The position numbers and the translations under genes were made by a program. A stretch of 64,000 bases of DNA. Source: Gammaproteobacteria bacterium (lineage in GTDB: Bacteria > Pseudomonadota > Gammaproteobacteria > Pseudomonadales > Azotimanducaceae). This document shows, piece by piece, positions 14,532 to 21,331 of this stretch. The notes under the pieces were generated by a model. The model was not told the origin of the DNA, ran no database searches, and saw only the letters and a list, made by a program, of their open reading frames with translations. Positions within the stretch are counted from its first letter, which is position 1. Each line of letters starts with the position of its first letter. The stretch is taken from assembly GCA_009837725.1 (NCBI GenBank), contig VXSY01000297.1, positions 1,278 to 65,277 on the forward strand, read 5' to 3'.

Positions 14532-15551
14532 ATGGAGATCATTCGCGGCCTGCACAACATCCGCCCGAGGCATCGCGGCTGCGTTGCCACGATCGGCACC
14601 TTTGATGGCGTCCACCATGGCCACCAGATGCTGCTCGCGCACCTCAAGGCGAAGAGCGAGGAACTTGGCGAGCCAAGTCTCCTCATCACCTTCGAGCCGC
14701 AGCCGCGCGAGTACTTCTACGCCCCCACGGGCACGCGCCCGGATGGTGGCGGTGCCGTTTCGGGGGGAAGTGGCAGGCCGCCCCCAGCACGCCTCACGCG
14801 CTTTCGCGAGAAGGTCGATGCGCTGCGTGCCACTGGCATCGACCGGGTTCTGTGCATCCCCTTCAACGAGCGCACGCGGCTGATCCCGGCGCGGGAGGTG
14901 GTGGAGCGCTTCCTCGTTGAGATGCTCGGAGTGAAATACCTCGTCGTCGGCGACGACTTCCGCTTCGGCCAGAACCGCGAGGGCGACTATGCGCTGCTGA
15001 AGGCGCTCGGCGACGAACTGGGCTTCGGCGTCAGCCACATGGGCACCCTCACGTTCGACAACGAACGGGTAAGCAGCACGCGCATCCGGACCGCGTTGGG
15101 CGAGGGGGACTTCGCGCTGGCAGAGAAGCTCTTGGGCCGGCCGTACTGCATGATGGGGCGCGTGGTGTACGGCCATCAGTTGGGTCGCACCATCGGCGTG
15201 CCGACGGCAAACATCCGCCTGCAGCGCTATCGTGCCGCCCTCGACGGCATCTTCGCGGTAACGGTGGATGGCCTGGGAGAACCCCTTGCCGGCGCGGCGA
15301 GCCTGGGCGTCCGACCCACGGTGCATGAAAGCGCCGAACCCTTGCTCGAAGTGCACATCCTCGACTTCGACCGCAGCATCTACGGCCGCCTTCTCACCGT
15401 GACGTTCCACCGCCGCATCCGCGAGGAGCGCAAGTATCCGAGCCTCGAAACCATGAAGGCGCAGATCGAGCGCGACATTGCCGACACGCGGGACTGGTTC
15501 GCTCGCCACCCGGTGCTGGCGGAACCGGTCCCACGACGCGAACCGTCGTGA
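14532..15551 (+). CDS. ribF: Bifunctional riboflavin kinase/FAD synthetase
   Basis: GTFDGVHHGHQ, VGDDFRFG and GRTIGVPTANI motifs. Relative to E. coli RibF there is a Gly-rich insertion of about 16 aa (PTGTRPDGGGAVSGGSGRP). Confidence 0.93.
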   Translation: MEIIRGLHNIRPRHRGCVATIGTFDGVHHGHQMLLAHLKAKSEELGEPSLLITFEPQPREYFYAPTGTRPDGGGAVSGGSGRPPPARLTRFREKVDALRATGIDRVLCIPFNERTRLIPAREVVERFLVEMLGVKYLVVGDDFRFGQNREGDYALLKALGDELGFGVSHMGTLTFDNERVSSTRIRTALGEGDFALAEKLLGRPYCMMGRVVYGHQLGRTIGVPTANIRLQRYRAALDGIFAVTVDGLGEPLAGAASLGVRPTVHESAEPLLEVHILDFDRSIYGRLLTVTFHRRIREERKYPSLETMKAQIERDIADTRDWFARHPVLAEPVPRREPS

Positions 15552-16033
15552 TTCGCTGGTACGCGTTGGCGACGGTCGTGCTGATCGCCGATCAGGCCAC
15601 GAAGCTCTGGGTCCTGATGGCTCTAGACCGAGGCCTGTCTGTGCCCGTGCTGCCGTTCCTTTCCTGGACCAACGCCTGCAATTCCGGCGTCGCCTTCAGC
15701 ATGTTCCGTGGCTATGGCTGGGTGTTCGCGCCGGTGGCGTTGGCGGTGAGCGGTTACCTTGCCTGGGAGATCTGGCGGCTCAGGCGGCGCGAGACCACGA
15801 CCCTGGTGCAGCTTGAGGGGGCGGCGTACGGGTTGGTGATGGCGGGTGCGCTTGGCAACGTGCTGGACCGGCTCACCCAAGGCTGCGTCGTGGACTTCAT
15901 CCACGTCCACTACGGCTGGTTCAACTTCCCCGTGTTCAACGTGGCGGACAGCGCCGTGACGGTGGGCGCGGCGACGTGGATCGGGCTGCTTGTCGCGCAG
16001 ATGATCGACGAGCGACGCCAGCGTGCCGCCTGA
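15548..16033 (+). CDS. lspA: Lipoprotein signal peptidase (signal peptidase II)
   Basis: 161 aa with IADQATKLWV and FNVADSAV motifs. The GTG start overlaps the ribF stop (GTGA). Confidence 0.9.
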   Translation: MIRWYALATVVLIADQATKLWVLMALDRGLSVPVLPFLSWTNACNSGVAFSMFRGYGWVFAPVALAVSGYLAWEIWRLRRRETTTLVQLEGAAYGLVMAGALGNVLDRLTQGCVVDFIHVHYGWFNFPVFNVADSAVTVGAATWIGLLVAQMIDERRQRAA

Positions 16034-16852: not shown

Positions 16853-18063
16853 CTACAGTGTCAGTCCCTTGTAAACGTCTCCGCGCGGGCCGAAACGTAT
16901 CAGGCGAACGACCCGCCGGGCCCCATCAGGGTCGTACACCAACCTGTCGTCGCCCACGCGATACCGCCAGAGTCGCCCGCCGTGGCCTTCGAGACGCTTG
17001 AGGCGCGGGTTGGTTTGCGCGGCCAAGGGCGCTTGACAAATCTCCATCACGGCTCCGACCACTGTTCCGAAGTCCCTCCTGCCGCGCCTCTTCACATCGC
17101 CGAAGAAACGCGATCCCATTTCGAAGCCCCAAGCCGCCTCCTTCGCATCGGAAGCCACGCGGATTTCCGAGGGACCGGGGATTGCTCCCCTTAGAATCTC
17201 CTTGGCCTGGTCCGGCTGCCACACCTCGCGCGGATAGCCGCTCGGCGGAACCTCGTCTTGGTGCAGCGAACACGTCCCAATGCGTTCGCCTTGGCTCTCC
17301 AGTGCGAAGAGTTGCTCCGCATCCATTGACAGGAGCTTCCCAAAGACCCGCCCGAACGAGGTCAGTGCGTAGTCGCCCGCTCCGACCGTGTCGAAGGCAT
17401 GCACGACTCCCACGTGTCTGGCCAGCATGTTCCAGTCGATCAGGCGCCTGTACGCCTCCATCGCCGTCAGGTCGACCACACACGCGATGCCGCCTCGCCG
17501 CACGACGTCGCACAGCACGTCTGTGAGCAAGGAGTCCTCCTGCCAAATCTCCGCCACCCTAGGCGTCAATGGACAGCTGTAGAGCTGAATCGGCTCCCCC
17601 GAAGCAGCATGCCGTACAGACCCGACAAGACCAGAGTCCGTTTCTGCGCCTTGCACCGTCTCCTACTCTCGGTGTCCAACGCGACAAAGAAGCGCCCTTG
17701 GTACCTGTCGATCGCGGGCAGGTATTCGACCCTCCGGGTGCCGCCAAAGTCGTGGCCCTTTGCCAGAGCCCGATTGTGTGGATGATCTGCCAGAGGAACT
17801 CCCTGCCAGTCCGTGTCGCTGCCGCCCTTGACCAACTCACGGACAGCGTTTCTTCGGTCCAGCAGCACGCCGGCTTCGCGCCGTCCGACGCTGTCGAGGA
17901 TGGCCGCGCCGCCCTCATACTGGGCGACACCGCCCACCTCCTTGGTAAGCGAACAGGCGGTCACAAACAATGGCTCTGACACGTCCCCTCCGAACTGCTC
18001 CAACTCAGGCCATGAGCGGCATACCCAGTCGCGGTCGCCCTCATTTCTCGTTGCAGGCCACAT
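16853..18063 (-). pseudogene. YaaA/DUF328-like protein fused to a C-terminal RelE/ParE-like toxin domain; reading frame broken at a G5 run
   Basis: ORF 17566..18063 has FVTACSLTKE, PAIDRYQGRFFVAL and LVLSGLYGMLLRG. ORF 16853..17656 has EPIQLYSCPL..., VVDLTAMEAYRRL and C-terminal LKRLEGHGGRLWRYRVGDDRLVYDPDGARRVVRLIRFGPRGDVY. The two ORFs overlap by 91 nt in different frames. One extra G at 17596-17600 would join them. Confidence 0.6.
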
Positions 18064-18089
18064 TTCGCGGATGTAGGCTCGCCGGTGCC

Positions 18090-19139
18090 ATGTCTGCCGA
18101 CTTTGACGCGTCCGGTCAAATCGCTGGTCGCCCGAGAATCGCCAAAGCCTACCCGGAACGCGGGCCGCTTCAGCAGTTTCGTCTTGCAGAAACCATGGAG
18201 TTCACGTGCCTCCGATGCCACGTCACCAAGCGGTCGAGGCTCATCGCACCATCTGCCGGTGACTGGTCCAGGCTTTTGTGCAATGGCTGTTACGGCGAAC
18301 TGATCTCTCAGCCCAGCCTCGAAGCGCGGCCCGCCTCGACGACGAACAACGTGGTGGCCGACCCTAAGCTGTCCGCGGCCAACCGGAACCCGACGCCTCT
18401 GTTCGAGGACTACGTTTTACGGATGAAGCGGTTGCCCCAGGATCCCGACGAGGGCGATGTAGTCAATCGCCAGTTTCTGTTGGGTCGTTACCACGCGCAC
18501 CCCGCGCGACGCGGAACCCGACCGCGGCGGTTCGATGTCTACTACGCGCCACTGCACGGATTCCAGGACCAGGCCAAGGTCGTCCTCATTGGCGTCACGC
18601 CGGGAATCCAGCAGATGCTGGTCGCGTTTCGAGAGGCGCGCCGTCTACTTCACCAAGGCGCTGCAGCACCGGGAATCTACCACCTAATCCGACGCCGTAT
18701 GGCTTTCGCCGGCCAGACCCGTGTCAATCTGATCCGGCTCCTCGAAGCAGTCCAACTGCCCCAGATGCTCGGACTGTCGGGCGCCGGCGAGCTGTTCGGA
18801 CGAGCGAGCAGCCTGTTGCATTCGACGTCGGCGCTGAGATATCCGGTGCTCGTCAACGGAGCCAACTACACCGGACACAATCCGCCGATCCGGCGTCTGC
18901 CATCCGAGATTCGAAGCTACCTGCCGATGTTGTCCGATCAGCTCAACGGCCTACCTGACGCACTGGTCGTTCCACTCGGACCGGCCGTGGAGGAGGCCCT
19001 TCGCCTCATCGACTTCAACGAACGTCGCGTGCTCACGGGCTTCCCCCATCCCTCCGGTGCGAACAGGGGGCGCCACGCCACATTCGTGCGCCAGCGCGCC
19101 CCGGAACTACGACGGGTACTCGGGGCTGCGAGTCTCTAA
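18090..19139 (+). CDS. Zinc-ribbon plus uracil-DNA-glycosylase-superfamily-fold protein
   Basis: N-terminal CxxC...CxxC (FTCLRCHV...LLCNGCYG). C-terminal UDG-type motifs KVVLIGVTPG (motif A-like) and LTGFPHPSGANRG (motif B-like HPS). The start is moved to ATG 18090 (MSADFD) so it does not overlap the divergent gene. Confidence 0.6.
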   Translation: MSADFDASGQIAGRPRIAKAYPERGPLQQFRLAETMEFTCLRCHVTKRSRLIAPSAGDWSRLLCNGCYGELISQPSLEARPASTTNNVVADPKLSAANRNPTPLFEDYVLRMKRLPQDPDEGDVVNRQFLLGRYHAHPARRGTRPRRFDVYYAPLHGFQDQAKVVLIGVTPGIQQMLVAFREARRLLHQGAAAPGIYHLIRRRMAFAGQTRVNLIRLLEAVQLPQMLGLSGAGELFGRASSLLHSTSALRYPVLVNGANYTGHNPPIRRLPSEIRSYLPMLSDQLNGLPDALVVPLGPAVEEALRLIDFNERRVLTGFPHPSGANRGRHATFVRQRAPELRRVLGAASL

Positions 19140-19201
19140 GGCTCGCGTCAAGTCACCATAACCATCGGGAGCACACGACGACGACGGGAACCGTCTTCGT
19201 G

Positions 19202-19243
19202 TCCTGCTTCCAGCACCTCCTGCAGGAGGTGCTGGAAGCAGGA
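19202..19243. repeat. Perfect 42-bp palindrome
   Basis: TCCTGCTTCCAGCACCTCCTGCAGGAGGTGCTGGAAGCAGGA. I checked all 21 pairs by position. It lies 63 nt after the stop of the UDG-fold gene. Confidence 0.95.
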
Positions 19244-20848
19244 GATGACCGAGGCGCTGGGGGGGCGCAACACGGGCCGTGTACGGAGCGACCGGCCTCA
19301 TTGAAGGGCCGCTGCGCACCAATCCGAGAGTACTCCGCGGAAGGCTGCAAGGCCAAATGCGTCCCCATGCCGCCGCCAGGGGGGCTGAACCGATTGGAGT
19401 CGCACACGCCGTTTGGGGCTCGCGAGGTCGCCGTCCGGCATTGAAAAGGGCATGGGGCGCGGGGTCGGTTTCGTGCGTGCACTCACCGCGACCTTTGCCC
19501 CCTTGGCGTGTCGGGTGGCTTCGGCTGCTGCTGGCACTCCCAACGTTGCGGCTGTCGTAGTTCCTGCACCTGCACGAGCGGAAGGGAGAAGCCGATCAGG
19601 GCGGCGGCCTTGACCCGTCGCCTCGCCGTTCCCGCAATCGGTGGGGCTCCAGCGCCGCCAGCGTCTTCCGTGACGGGCGCGGCGTGCTGTATCCGCCCCG
19701 CCCAAGCCACGAGCACGATTCCAGGAAGGGCGTAGTTTCCCCGACGATCCGCAGCAGTTCGTCGTGGTCGAGGCGGTACAGGTTGCCGTCAACCGGGAAC
19801 TCCACCATCACGCCGCGTCCAATGTGCCTTTGGTCGATGCGCAGGCGGGTATGTTGAACGATCTTCACGGATGGGTGCGCCGCAGCTTCACTGCGGCAAG
19901 CGTATCTGTTTGAGTCCTGCCGGAACACCTGGGCTGGCCGTCGGTGTCCCTGAAGAACATGGACGGCTAGCCCTTGGGTTGAGGGCCAGAGGCTCGCGCG
20001 AATGCCCACATTTAGGAACCACTTCGCCAAGTCCAAGGCTGCAGCGGATGCTCAACGCTCGGCGCAGAACCGCCGCCCACGCTCGCCACAAGGAAGTCGC
20101 TCAAGGAGCAATCGCCATTGCGACTGCGCAGAACTGCACTCAAATCTGTCAGTTGATGACGGTCTGTCGCGAGCGACGGCGTACCGTGGCCGCCGAAGAG
20201 CCCTTGACGGGCTGCGACCCGCCGTCCCGCCGGCCGGTGGGATGGTCCGCGCCGCGGTCTGTGCGATCGCTCGGCACATGATCGCGATCCTCCGCAGCAT
20301 CCTCTCCGGAACGCCGCCACTACCTGCGCGATGAGTGCCACACCACCCGCACCGCACGGCGGCAGAATCGCCACGAAGCGCCGGGGATACGCACTGCCGG
20401 CACGGCTGACCGTCCTCCGTGCCGAAGTTCCGCAAGTTCCCGTCCGCCGAGCGGCAGGCCCCGGCCGCCGTCGGCGCTTGGTCAACCTCGGAGCCCTGAG
20501 CCGCAATCCCGGCAGGAGACCGTCCACCGGCACCGTCCGCAACGTCCGCCAGTGCCTAACCCACATCGCGCCCCGCCCGATGCGTTCGAGCGGCTGTGCC
20601 AACGGCTCCCCAGGGAGCACGGTTTCACGCGTGTCGAGGTGACTGGAGCGCAGCAACTGCCAACGCGCCCGCCAAGGTGCGCCGGGACGGACAAGCCGGC
20701 CCTACGGCCCTCGCACGTCGCTCAGGTGCGGACATCGCCGCCGTTGAGATGTGCGAGTTGACGGAAACCCGTGTGCGACATTCGCCATCGGCGTCACAAC
20801 GAGCTTTTCCCGTCGTAGTTTGGGCATCCACCGTTGCGGAGTACGTCA

Positions 20849-21331
20849 ATGCGCCCCTCGCGAGAACTGTTGCGCGCACAGTCGGGCCTTTCTCTTGTGG
20901 AGCTGCTTGTGGCGTTGGCGGTACTCGCCATATTGGCTGTGGTGGCGCTGCCGGTCTATCAGGTGTTGGGCGTGCGCGGCAGCAGGGCCGAGGCGCAGGC
21001 CGACCTCATGGCCTGCGCGCAGGGCATGGAGCGAGCTGTGGGCATGGGGTTCGGCTACGAGGGCCTCGTGGACTCGGACGCGGACGGCGTGGGCGACGCG
21101 GACACAGGCCCCGTGTCCGCGAACATCTGCTCCGTCACGAGCCTCGATTACACGCTCCATGTTCGCACCGCAAGCACAAGCGGCTTCACCCTTCGGGCGG
21201 TGCCAACCACCGCCGGCAACCGTGTGGACGGCGATGGCGCGCTGGAACTTGATAGCGACGGGACGCGTCGCTGGGACCGCAATGACGACGGCGACTTCGA
21301 CGACCAAGGGGAGCGTCGATGGAGCGAGTGA
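20849..21331 (+). CDS. Type IV minor pilin, PilE/FimU-like
   Basis: Prepilin-type N-terminal methylation motif QSGLSLVELLVALAVLAILAVVALP. An alternative TTG start exists at 20834. Confidence 0.8.
   Translation: MRPSRELLRAQSGLSLVELLVALAVLAILAVVALPVYQVLGVRGSRAEAQADLMACAQGMERAVGMGFGYEGLVDSDADGVGDADTGPVSANICSVTSLDYTLHVRTASTSGFTLRAVPTTAGNRVDGDGALELDSDGTRRWDRNDDGDFDDQGERRWSE

Follow-up and report, generated by a model that had tools for sequence, protein, structure and literature searches.

The 64,000-nt window analyzed here (contig VXSY01000297.1 of a gammaproteobacterial assembly; coordinates count from the first letter of the window) carries a minus-strand gene that, after repair of a single frameshift, encodes a fusion of an N-terminal YaaA-like (DUF328-superfamily) domain to a C-terminal RelE toxin fold. 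Both folds are confirmed in the fusion protein, which belongs to a family that is real, under selection and undescribed. A literature search returned no description of a YaaA-RelE architecture, and NCBIfam gave nothing useful for the fusion or for the gene that diverges from it. We consider it moderately probable, from conserved motifs, a structural model and an analogy with a known fusion, that the protein is a single-chain sensor-effector whose YaaA-like domain senses nucleic acid and controls the RelE domain in cis. The divergent plus-strand gene encodes a protein with a uracil-DNA glycosylase (UDG) fold. Its pairing with the fusion is unique to this lineage, and it is a coincidental neighbor.

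Two folds in one chain

The repaired protein of 376 aa matches the Pfam family YaaA (PF03883) with 32.4 bits, above the gathering cut-off of 29.6 (E = 8.8e-8); scored singly, the broken halves fall below this threshold. The AlphaFold2 model of the fusion has a pLDDT (predicted local distance difference test) of 91.5 and a pTM (predicted template modeling score) of 0.90, the latter implying a fixed packing of the predicted domains against each other. Its top Foldseek match is E. coli YaaA (5caj_A, E = 1.5e-7, 283 columns, template modeling score on the target 0.53), followed at ranks 2–24 by RelE, YoeB, YafQ and HigB toxins (target scores 0.6–0.8); about forty structures of these toxins stand after YaaA in the list, with the CARF-RelE fusion Cami1, matched through its RelE part, lower down. 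A profile built from 38 members of the family matches M. tuberculosis RelE2 in the PDB (3g5o_B, residues 279–370, E = 1.3e-7), as well as archaeal aRelE (1wmi), RelE1 (9g12), RelK, YoeB and, weakly, YaaA (5caj). Several homologs of the fusion carry the Pfam ParE_toxin domain (PF05016). The preliminary description of this locus had assigned the two parts of the protein to YaaA/DUF328 and RelE/ParE from their letters, and both assignments are borne out by these matches.

In the N-terminal domain the invariant or near-invariant residues are C10, S11, K14, R93, Y94, G96, R97, S120, L122, Y123, G124, Q133 and Y135, which fall into the motifs C10-S11-x-x-K14, R93-Y94-x-G96-R97, S120-x-L122-Y123-G124 and Q133-x-Y135. 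Judged from sequence, they resemble a pocket-like set (CSxxK / RYxGR / SGLYG). E. coli YaaA (DUF328, PF03883, 5caj) has the same fold and shares the RYxG and SGLYG motifs. In contrast to YaaA, the fusion has a Cys in CSxxK, a region whose counterpart in E. coli YaaA we take to be ISPAKTL, as in the comparison made earlier. The fusion is moreover only about 16% identical to YaaA, has a toxin domain attached, and resides on mobile islands instead of being a core gene.

Proteins of the YaaA/DUF328 group are widespread, and reports on them concern peroxide stress and DNA binding. To our knowledge, enzymatic action on a base in DNA is known for just one member, DpdC. DpdC belongs to PF03883 and hydrolyzes preQ0 within DNA, yielding ADG; unlike DpdC, the fusion has no Dpd genes near it. 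The paper on the Pfam update (PMC11701544) describes the DUF6884 proteins as relatives with the YaaA fold and with CxxxK and LSAxxG motifs, one of which, YfjM, binds abasic lesions and RNA lesions. Motifs of the CxxxK and LSxxxG type are common to DUF6884/YfjM and the N-terminal domain of the fusion. The activities of DpdC and YfjM indicate that the superfamily includes proteins acting on single bases in DNA.

The C-terminal domain contains five residues that are invariant or nearly so throughout the family, R340, R342, R347, R367 and Y371, which hhalign places on K54, R56, R61, R81 and Y87 of E. coli RelE. We take K54, R61, R81 and Y87, in this numbering, to be catalytic in RelE. Four of the five RelE catalytic residues (K52, K54, R61, R81, and Y87) have conserved equivalents in the fusion family, and both the fold and the equivalents of K54, R61, R81 and Y87 are common to the fusion and the RelE toxins (E. 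coli RelE, M. tuberculosis RelE2/RelG, 3g5o, and P. horikoshii aRelE, 1wmi). The fusion differs from free RelE in that its domain is not a separate 90-aa protein, the position of K52 is unconserved, and no RelB-type antitoxin gene lies beside it at any locus. Clustering of the neighboring open reading frames (ORFs) at 31 loci revealed no small conserved gene that could be an antitoxin, nor is there one in the window, in agreement with the earlier remark that a conventional small antitoxin gene is lacking.

The ORF listing contains two overlapping minus-strand ORFs in different frames (17566–18063 and 16853–17656) and one plus-strand ORF (17970–19139), consistent with the two divergent genes first noted here. 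At the junction the minus-strand sequence reads CTTCGGGGGAGCCG, and adding one G to its run of five merges both ORFs into one frame, as the preliminary description had foreseen in proposing a single frameshift. An independent 8-kb metagenome contig (L001) aligns to the window over 8064 nt with 99.78% identity, 17 mismatches and a single gap. Its genes stand in the order seen in the window (murJ, ribF, lspA, an FKBP gene, the fusion gene and the 349-aa gene), and its fusion gene (P0001) is intact, encoding 376 aa that are 99% identical to the repaired protein. Because the only gap in this alignment is the G run and the gene is intact in L001, the frameshift reflects either variation between strains or an error in the consensus, and is not a trait of the family. 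The fusion protein was first put at about 405 aa; this is revised to 376 aa, since the starts of the homologs coincide with GTG 17982, in front of which stands GGAGG. The coordinates of the features are collected in Table 1.

It is possible, although we rather doubt it, that the copy in this window is a dead pseudogene without any functioning feature, a matter that is independent of the role of the family. The loss of 1 nt from the G run brings a stop 11 codons further on, and toxin genes are often inactivated. On the other hand, the same population yielded an intact gene in the independent assembly with so few other differences, and the frame past the shift is otherwise open. Insertions and deletions in homopolymers are, in addition, a frequent consensus error in metagenome-assembled genomes (MAGs).

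Table 1. Positions of the fusion gene, its neighbor and their parts in the window.
Feature	Position	Strand	Basis or remark
YaaA-like::RelE fusion gene	16853..17982	-	376 aa after one G restored; split in this assembly
N-terminal YaaA/DUF328-superfamily domain, residues ~1-265	17189..17982	-	PF03883, Foldseek 5caj_A, invariant columns
C-terminal RelE-fold domain, residues ~283-376	16856..17137	-	Profile against PDB, Foldseek, hhalign, conservation
Frameshift site, G5 homopolymer (G6 in L001)	17596..17601	-	Sole gap in the 8064-nt alignment
Divergent intergenic region	17983..18089	.	107 bp with a partner start at 18090; up to ~370 bp with GTG 18351/18354 as the start
Putative N-terminal extension of the neighbor gene, CxxC...CxxC	18090..18386	+	Doubtful as a translated stretch or as a domain
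Divergent UDG-superfamily domain of the neighbor gene	18387..19139	+	AlphaFold2, Foldseek, sub-threshold Pfam match, conserved columns

A modular family and its recurrent neighbors

Searching with the repaired protein yielded 67 homologs at 30–99% identity, nearly all of 360–390 aa, and an exhaustive profile search gave 231 cluster representatives at E <= 1e-30. Scanning one genome per species with a profile made from 13 sequences identified 26 loci that encode relatives of the fusion, almost all in MAGs of gamma- and alphaproteobacteria; further loci were added by contig look-ups. Toxin-antitoxin (TA) modules, transposases and restriction-modification (R-M) systems are found near the homologs, and frameshifted or truncated copies of the fusion exist. 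Papers on type VI secretion that appear to mention DUF328 concern DUF3289 and are irrelevant here.

The N-terminal domain is not tied to RelE. Among the best 150 of the 231 representatives, most match the N-terminal domain only (profile positions ~2–257) and have lengths of 370–720 aa. In 92 of the cluster representatives we determined the fused domains with Pfam and PADLOC. Pfam identified SLFN_AlbA_2 in 12 members and HEAT in 5, with TIR, NERD, DUF4145 and HEPN_SAV2148 in 1 member each, and PADLOC identified TPR in 8, PDC-M34B in 5 and the C-terminus of DruE in 3. The homologs P0057, P0058, and P0059 bear the PLD-like C-terminal domain of DruE (E = 4.6e-32; PDB 9tu7_Y, E = 6.5e-21). One exchange of such modules can be followed at the DNA level, where the RelE fusion at L033:6001–7122 and the PLD-like fusion at L118:4190–5602 are 92–94% identical across the genes upstream and on to codon ~248. 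The identity ends at the domain boundary, after which L118 continues with the PLD-like domain and a HindIII-type R-M pair, and the two loci thus represent an in-place swap of the C-terminal module. Both also contain a separate YaaA gene of housekeeping size near the fusion.

Clustering of neighbor ORFs identified DUF6884 and GIY_YIG_3 proteins as the sole recurrent neighbor family of the fusion, and these match the PADLOC models PDC-M57A (E = 5e-38) and PDC-M57B (E = 6e-78). Eight loci, spread over several lineages, have PDC-M57 beside the fusion (L005:7576–11111, L007:8325–11086, L019, L020, L006, L009, L031, and L032). It lies on the strand of the fusion in 6 of the 8 at a distance of 6–196 bp, and in 2 loci has DUF6884 and GIY_YIG_3 fused into one protein. 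Its A component belongs to the YaaA superfamily. The fusion itself matches neither of the PDC-M57 models, and PDC-M57 is only a candidate system; a literature search found no paper that mentions it. In the 64-kb window, hmmsearch over all ORFs with HMMs from four locus proteins per kind detected no PDC-M57 genes.

Other neighbors were seen at fewer loci. A protein of 247–257 aa precedes PDC-M57 in L005 and L031, with a weak EndoIII-like similarity in the L005 protein (247 aa, E = 0.57). A DUF7662 protein adjoins the YaaA-like gene divergently in L033 (4873–5748) and L118 (3070–3939) and lies just downstream of it in L011 (11195–12010); its C-terminal half has a GIY-YIG-like motif, read by eye as GVYAV...LAYVG, and the window contains no gene for such a protein. 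The 240-aa proteins encoded in L031 and L037 proved unrelated to each other.

Roles proposed for the fusion

In the sensor-effector model that we favor, the N-terminal domain with its putative Cys/Lys/Arg/Tyr pocket would bind nucleic acid and recognize a specific base or lesion. At rest it would be packed on the RelE domain and keep it inactive, standing in for the missing antitoxin. Binding of the ligand (for example, modified, damaged or invading DNA) would release the RelE domain, which could then cleave mRNA on the ribosome and cause translation arrest, leading to abortive infection or stress arrest. The fusion might act alone or, in a quarter of the loci, beside the candidate defense pair PDC-M57. 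The interchangeable fusions to RelE, Schlafen/AlbA_2, TIR, NERD, HEPN and DruE-PLD-like domains, together with the PDC-M57 neighbor, suggest that the YaaA fold serves as a nucleic-acid sensor in conflict systems. A role of the fusion in defense has independent but indirect support.

The analogy is provided by Cami1, a CARF-RelE fusion that is an ancillary effector of type III CRISPR systems and has been solved on the ribosome (PDB 8phj). As in the fusion, an N-terminal sensor and a C-terminal RelE are combined in one chain with no antitoxin. The likeness is architectural only, as the putative sensor of the fusion is YaaA-like instead of CARF and there is no CRISPR association: a CARF domain was not matched in the fusion by Pfam at E <= 0.1, and the gene tables of the loci contain no cas genes. 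Under the sensor-effector model the fusion would join Cami1 as a second natural case in which a cis sensor, and not an antitoxin, controls a RelE nuclease.

Several observations weigh against this model. The match of the fusion protein to ParE_toxin (PF05016) reaches 18.9 bits, short of the cut-off of 23, and the residue that hhalign places on K52 of E. coli RelE, L338, is variable across the family. The proposed autoinhibition derives from a single score of the predicted structure, its high pTM. Not every fused domain is an effector, because the C-terminal domain of DruE (PLD2) was reported to be catalytically inactive and dispensable in the Druantia structure preprint (bioRxiv 10.64898/2026.05.12.722862). 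Three quarters of the fusion loci lack PDC-M57. Neither the fusion nor the UDG-fold protein matches PADLOC (2023 library), which holds no model of the fusion; this accords with the initial statement that the pair is not an already named system. Finally, the gene is frameshifted in this window and may therefore do nothing here.

Could the fusion instead be a TA addiction element in a single chain, in which the N-terminal domain is a mere cis antitoxin and the protein is selfish or stabilizing on mobile islands, with neither sensing nor defense? We regard this as unlikely. The conserved RelE residues and the lack of a separate antitoxin gene would fit such an element, as would surroundings rich in TA modules and transposases and the frameshifted or truncated copies. 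However, an enzyme-like domain of 265 aa with an invariant pocket goes far beyond what an antitoxin needs, the same domain is also joined to domains that are not toxins (HEAT, TPR, and the inactive PLD), and PDC-M57 recurs close by on the same strand.

There is little to recommend a third role, that of a DNA-repair or oxidative-stress factor like YaaA in which the RelE fold is an adaptor for RNA or ribosome binding, or is catalytically dead. The YaaA match lies above the Pfam threshold, a cluster with a DNA ligase or, possibly, an EndoIII-like gene stands beside some of the loci, and a housekeeping-size YaaA is separately present near the fusion in L033 and L118. Such a factor is nevertheless hard to reconcile with the patchy distribution, which is confined to MAG lineages and tied to mobile islands, with the conservation of the basic and Tyr residues of RelE, and with C-terminal partners of the conflict type (TIR, NERD, HEPN, and Schlafen).

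A more specific form of sensing, which we consider improbable, would make the YaaA-like domain a base-flipping sensor, tuned to abasic or modified bases in DNA, that gates the fused effector, with a variable partner turning foreign modified DNA into the sensed lesion. The role of partner would fall to the GIY-YIG and DUF6884 proteins in the PDC-M57 loci, to the EndoIII-like protein in L005 and L031 and, in the window, to the UDG-fold protein. If this were true, the fusion/UDG pair would be a rare variant of a new immune logic, and YaaA would gain a mechanistic frame.

The divergent UDG-fold gene and its island

The AlphaFold2 model of the 349-aa neighbor has a pLDDT above 90 for residues 100–349, and its top 15 Foldseek matches are all from the UDG superfamily, the best being a family 4 UDG (4zbx, E = 9.7e-4), with UdgX, SMUG1 and TDG also among them. 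The UDG fold proposed at first for this protein is therefore retained. It shares its fold and the GxxPG and HPS motifs with UDG families 2–4 (MUG/TDG, SMUG1, family 4 UDG, and UdgX), here as G168-x-T170-P171-G172 and H320-P321-S322 in HPSGAN. Unlike those families it stays below the threshold of the Pfam UDG family (PF03167, 20.0 bits against a cut-off of 24.3) and has a nearly invariant Thr at the usual position of the catalytic Asp/Asn. Some of its homologs do contain PF03167; a search of the neighbor protein against the PDB by sequence gave no match. With at least 181 homologs and at least 541 confirmed stretches in metagenomes of soil, sediment, gut and marine origin, the family is a large, widespread and uncharacterized branch of the UDG superfamily. 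In some of its members a GNAT or PF24623 domain is attached.

The N-terminal stretch of this protein had been described as a zinc ribbon. The CxxC...CxxC pattern is present as described, but a zinc ribbon is unsupported, because the N-terminal 111 aa have no homolog among 5.8 billion proteins, the closest relatives (65% identity) begin at MPSPEPQFE and lack the stretch, its pLDDT is 30–58, its codon-position signal (G + C at third positions) is weak, and the NCBI annotation of the gene gives 238 aa. A faint match to DUF7685 (E = 0.03) was also seen in this stretch.

The two genes were initially proposed to form one module, and this was not upheld by their distribution. When the neighbor protein and 120 members of its family were compared by tblastn with all fusion loci, only L001 matched, which is the same locus in the same organism. 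A UDG-like gene occurs within 6–10 kb of the fusion in none of ~35 other fusion loci, and a fusion-family gene in none of 84 UDG-like loci (L034–L117, of which 47 are at least 6 kb long, from a family with at least 541 stretches). Such a lack of adjacency elsewhere is the very outcome that the preliminary description had named as refuting its proposal. The nearest relatives of the fusion (74–77% identity) have different neighbors, and those of the UDG-like gene adjoin cox genes in Gemmatimonadota MAGs. A 348-aa protein near the homolog in L002, considered as a partner, was unrelated.

We therefore hold it very improbable that the fusion and the UDG-fold protein act as a two-gene defense or addiction module, for instance with a glycosylase making abasic sites that the YaaA-like domain senses, even though the genes diverge at 107 bp (ENA gene call) in a common lower-GC stretch, homologs of the fusion have other DNA-acting neighbors (GIY-YIG nucleases at 11 loci, the ATP-dependent ligase cluster of L004, and possibly the EndoIII-like protein of L005 and L031, itself a weak similarity), and the DUF6884 member YfjM binds abasic lesions: the closest relatives of each gene keep other neighbors, and the two families were found together at no other of the loci compared. 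A glycosylase partnership is not conserved and is not a system to take forward. The UDG-fold gene is more plausibly independent, and would have landed beside the fusion in a shared island in one lineage.

The island containing both genes, described earlier as an insert, has a G + C content of 0.58–0.64, compared with 0.66–0.68 outside it; no comparator with an empty site came to light. Direct repeats bounding the island were searched for, and none were present. Scans of the island for tRNA genes and Rfam families were negative, and its promoter and terminator signals did not exceed those expected from shuffled sequence. A near-perfect palindrome of 26 + 26 nt (19197–19248; 92% complementary, loopless) lies 58 nt past the stop of the UDG-like gene, and could be a terminator-like or REP-like (repetitive extragenic palindromic) element. 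The stretch from the UDG-like gene to the first pilin gene (19140–20830, ~1.7 kb) contains only Arg-rich, shadow-like ORFs without a Pfam or Rfam match, and could be decayed island sequence.

Two further features of the surrounding genes were observed. In the stretch 14532–16033, ribF and lspA overlap by 4 nt and ileS is not between them, unlike the usual order ribF-ileS-lspA; the same arrangement is present in L001. The product of the first gene past the island (20834–21331) is a minor type IV pilin of the ComP/DUS-receptor (DNA uptake sequence) type (PF16732, E = 2.3e-9) and carries an N-methylation motif.

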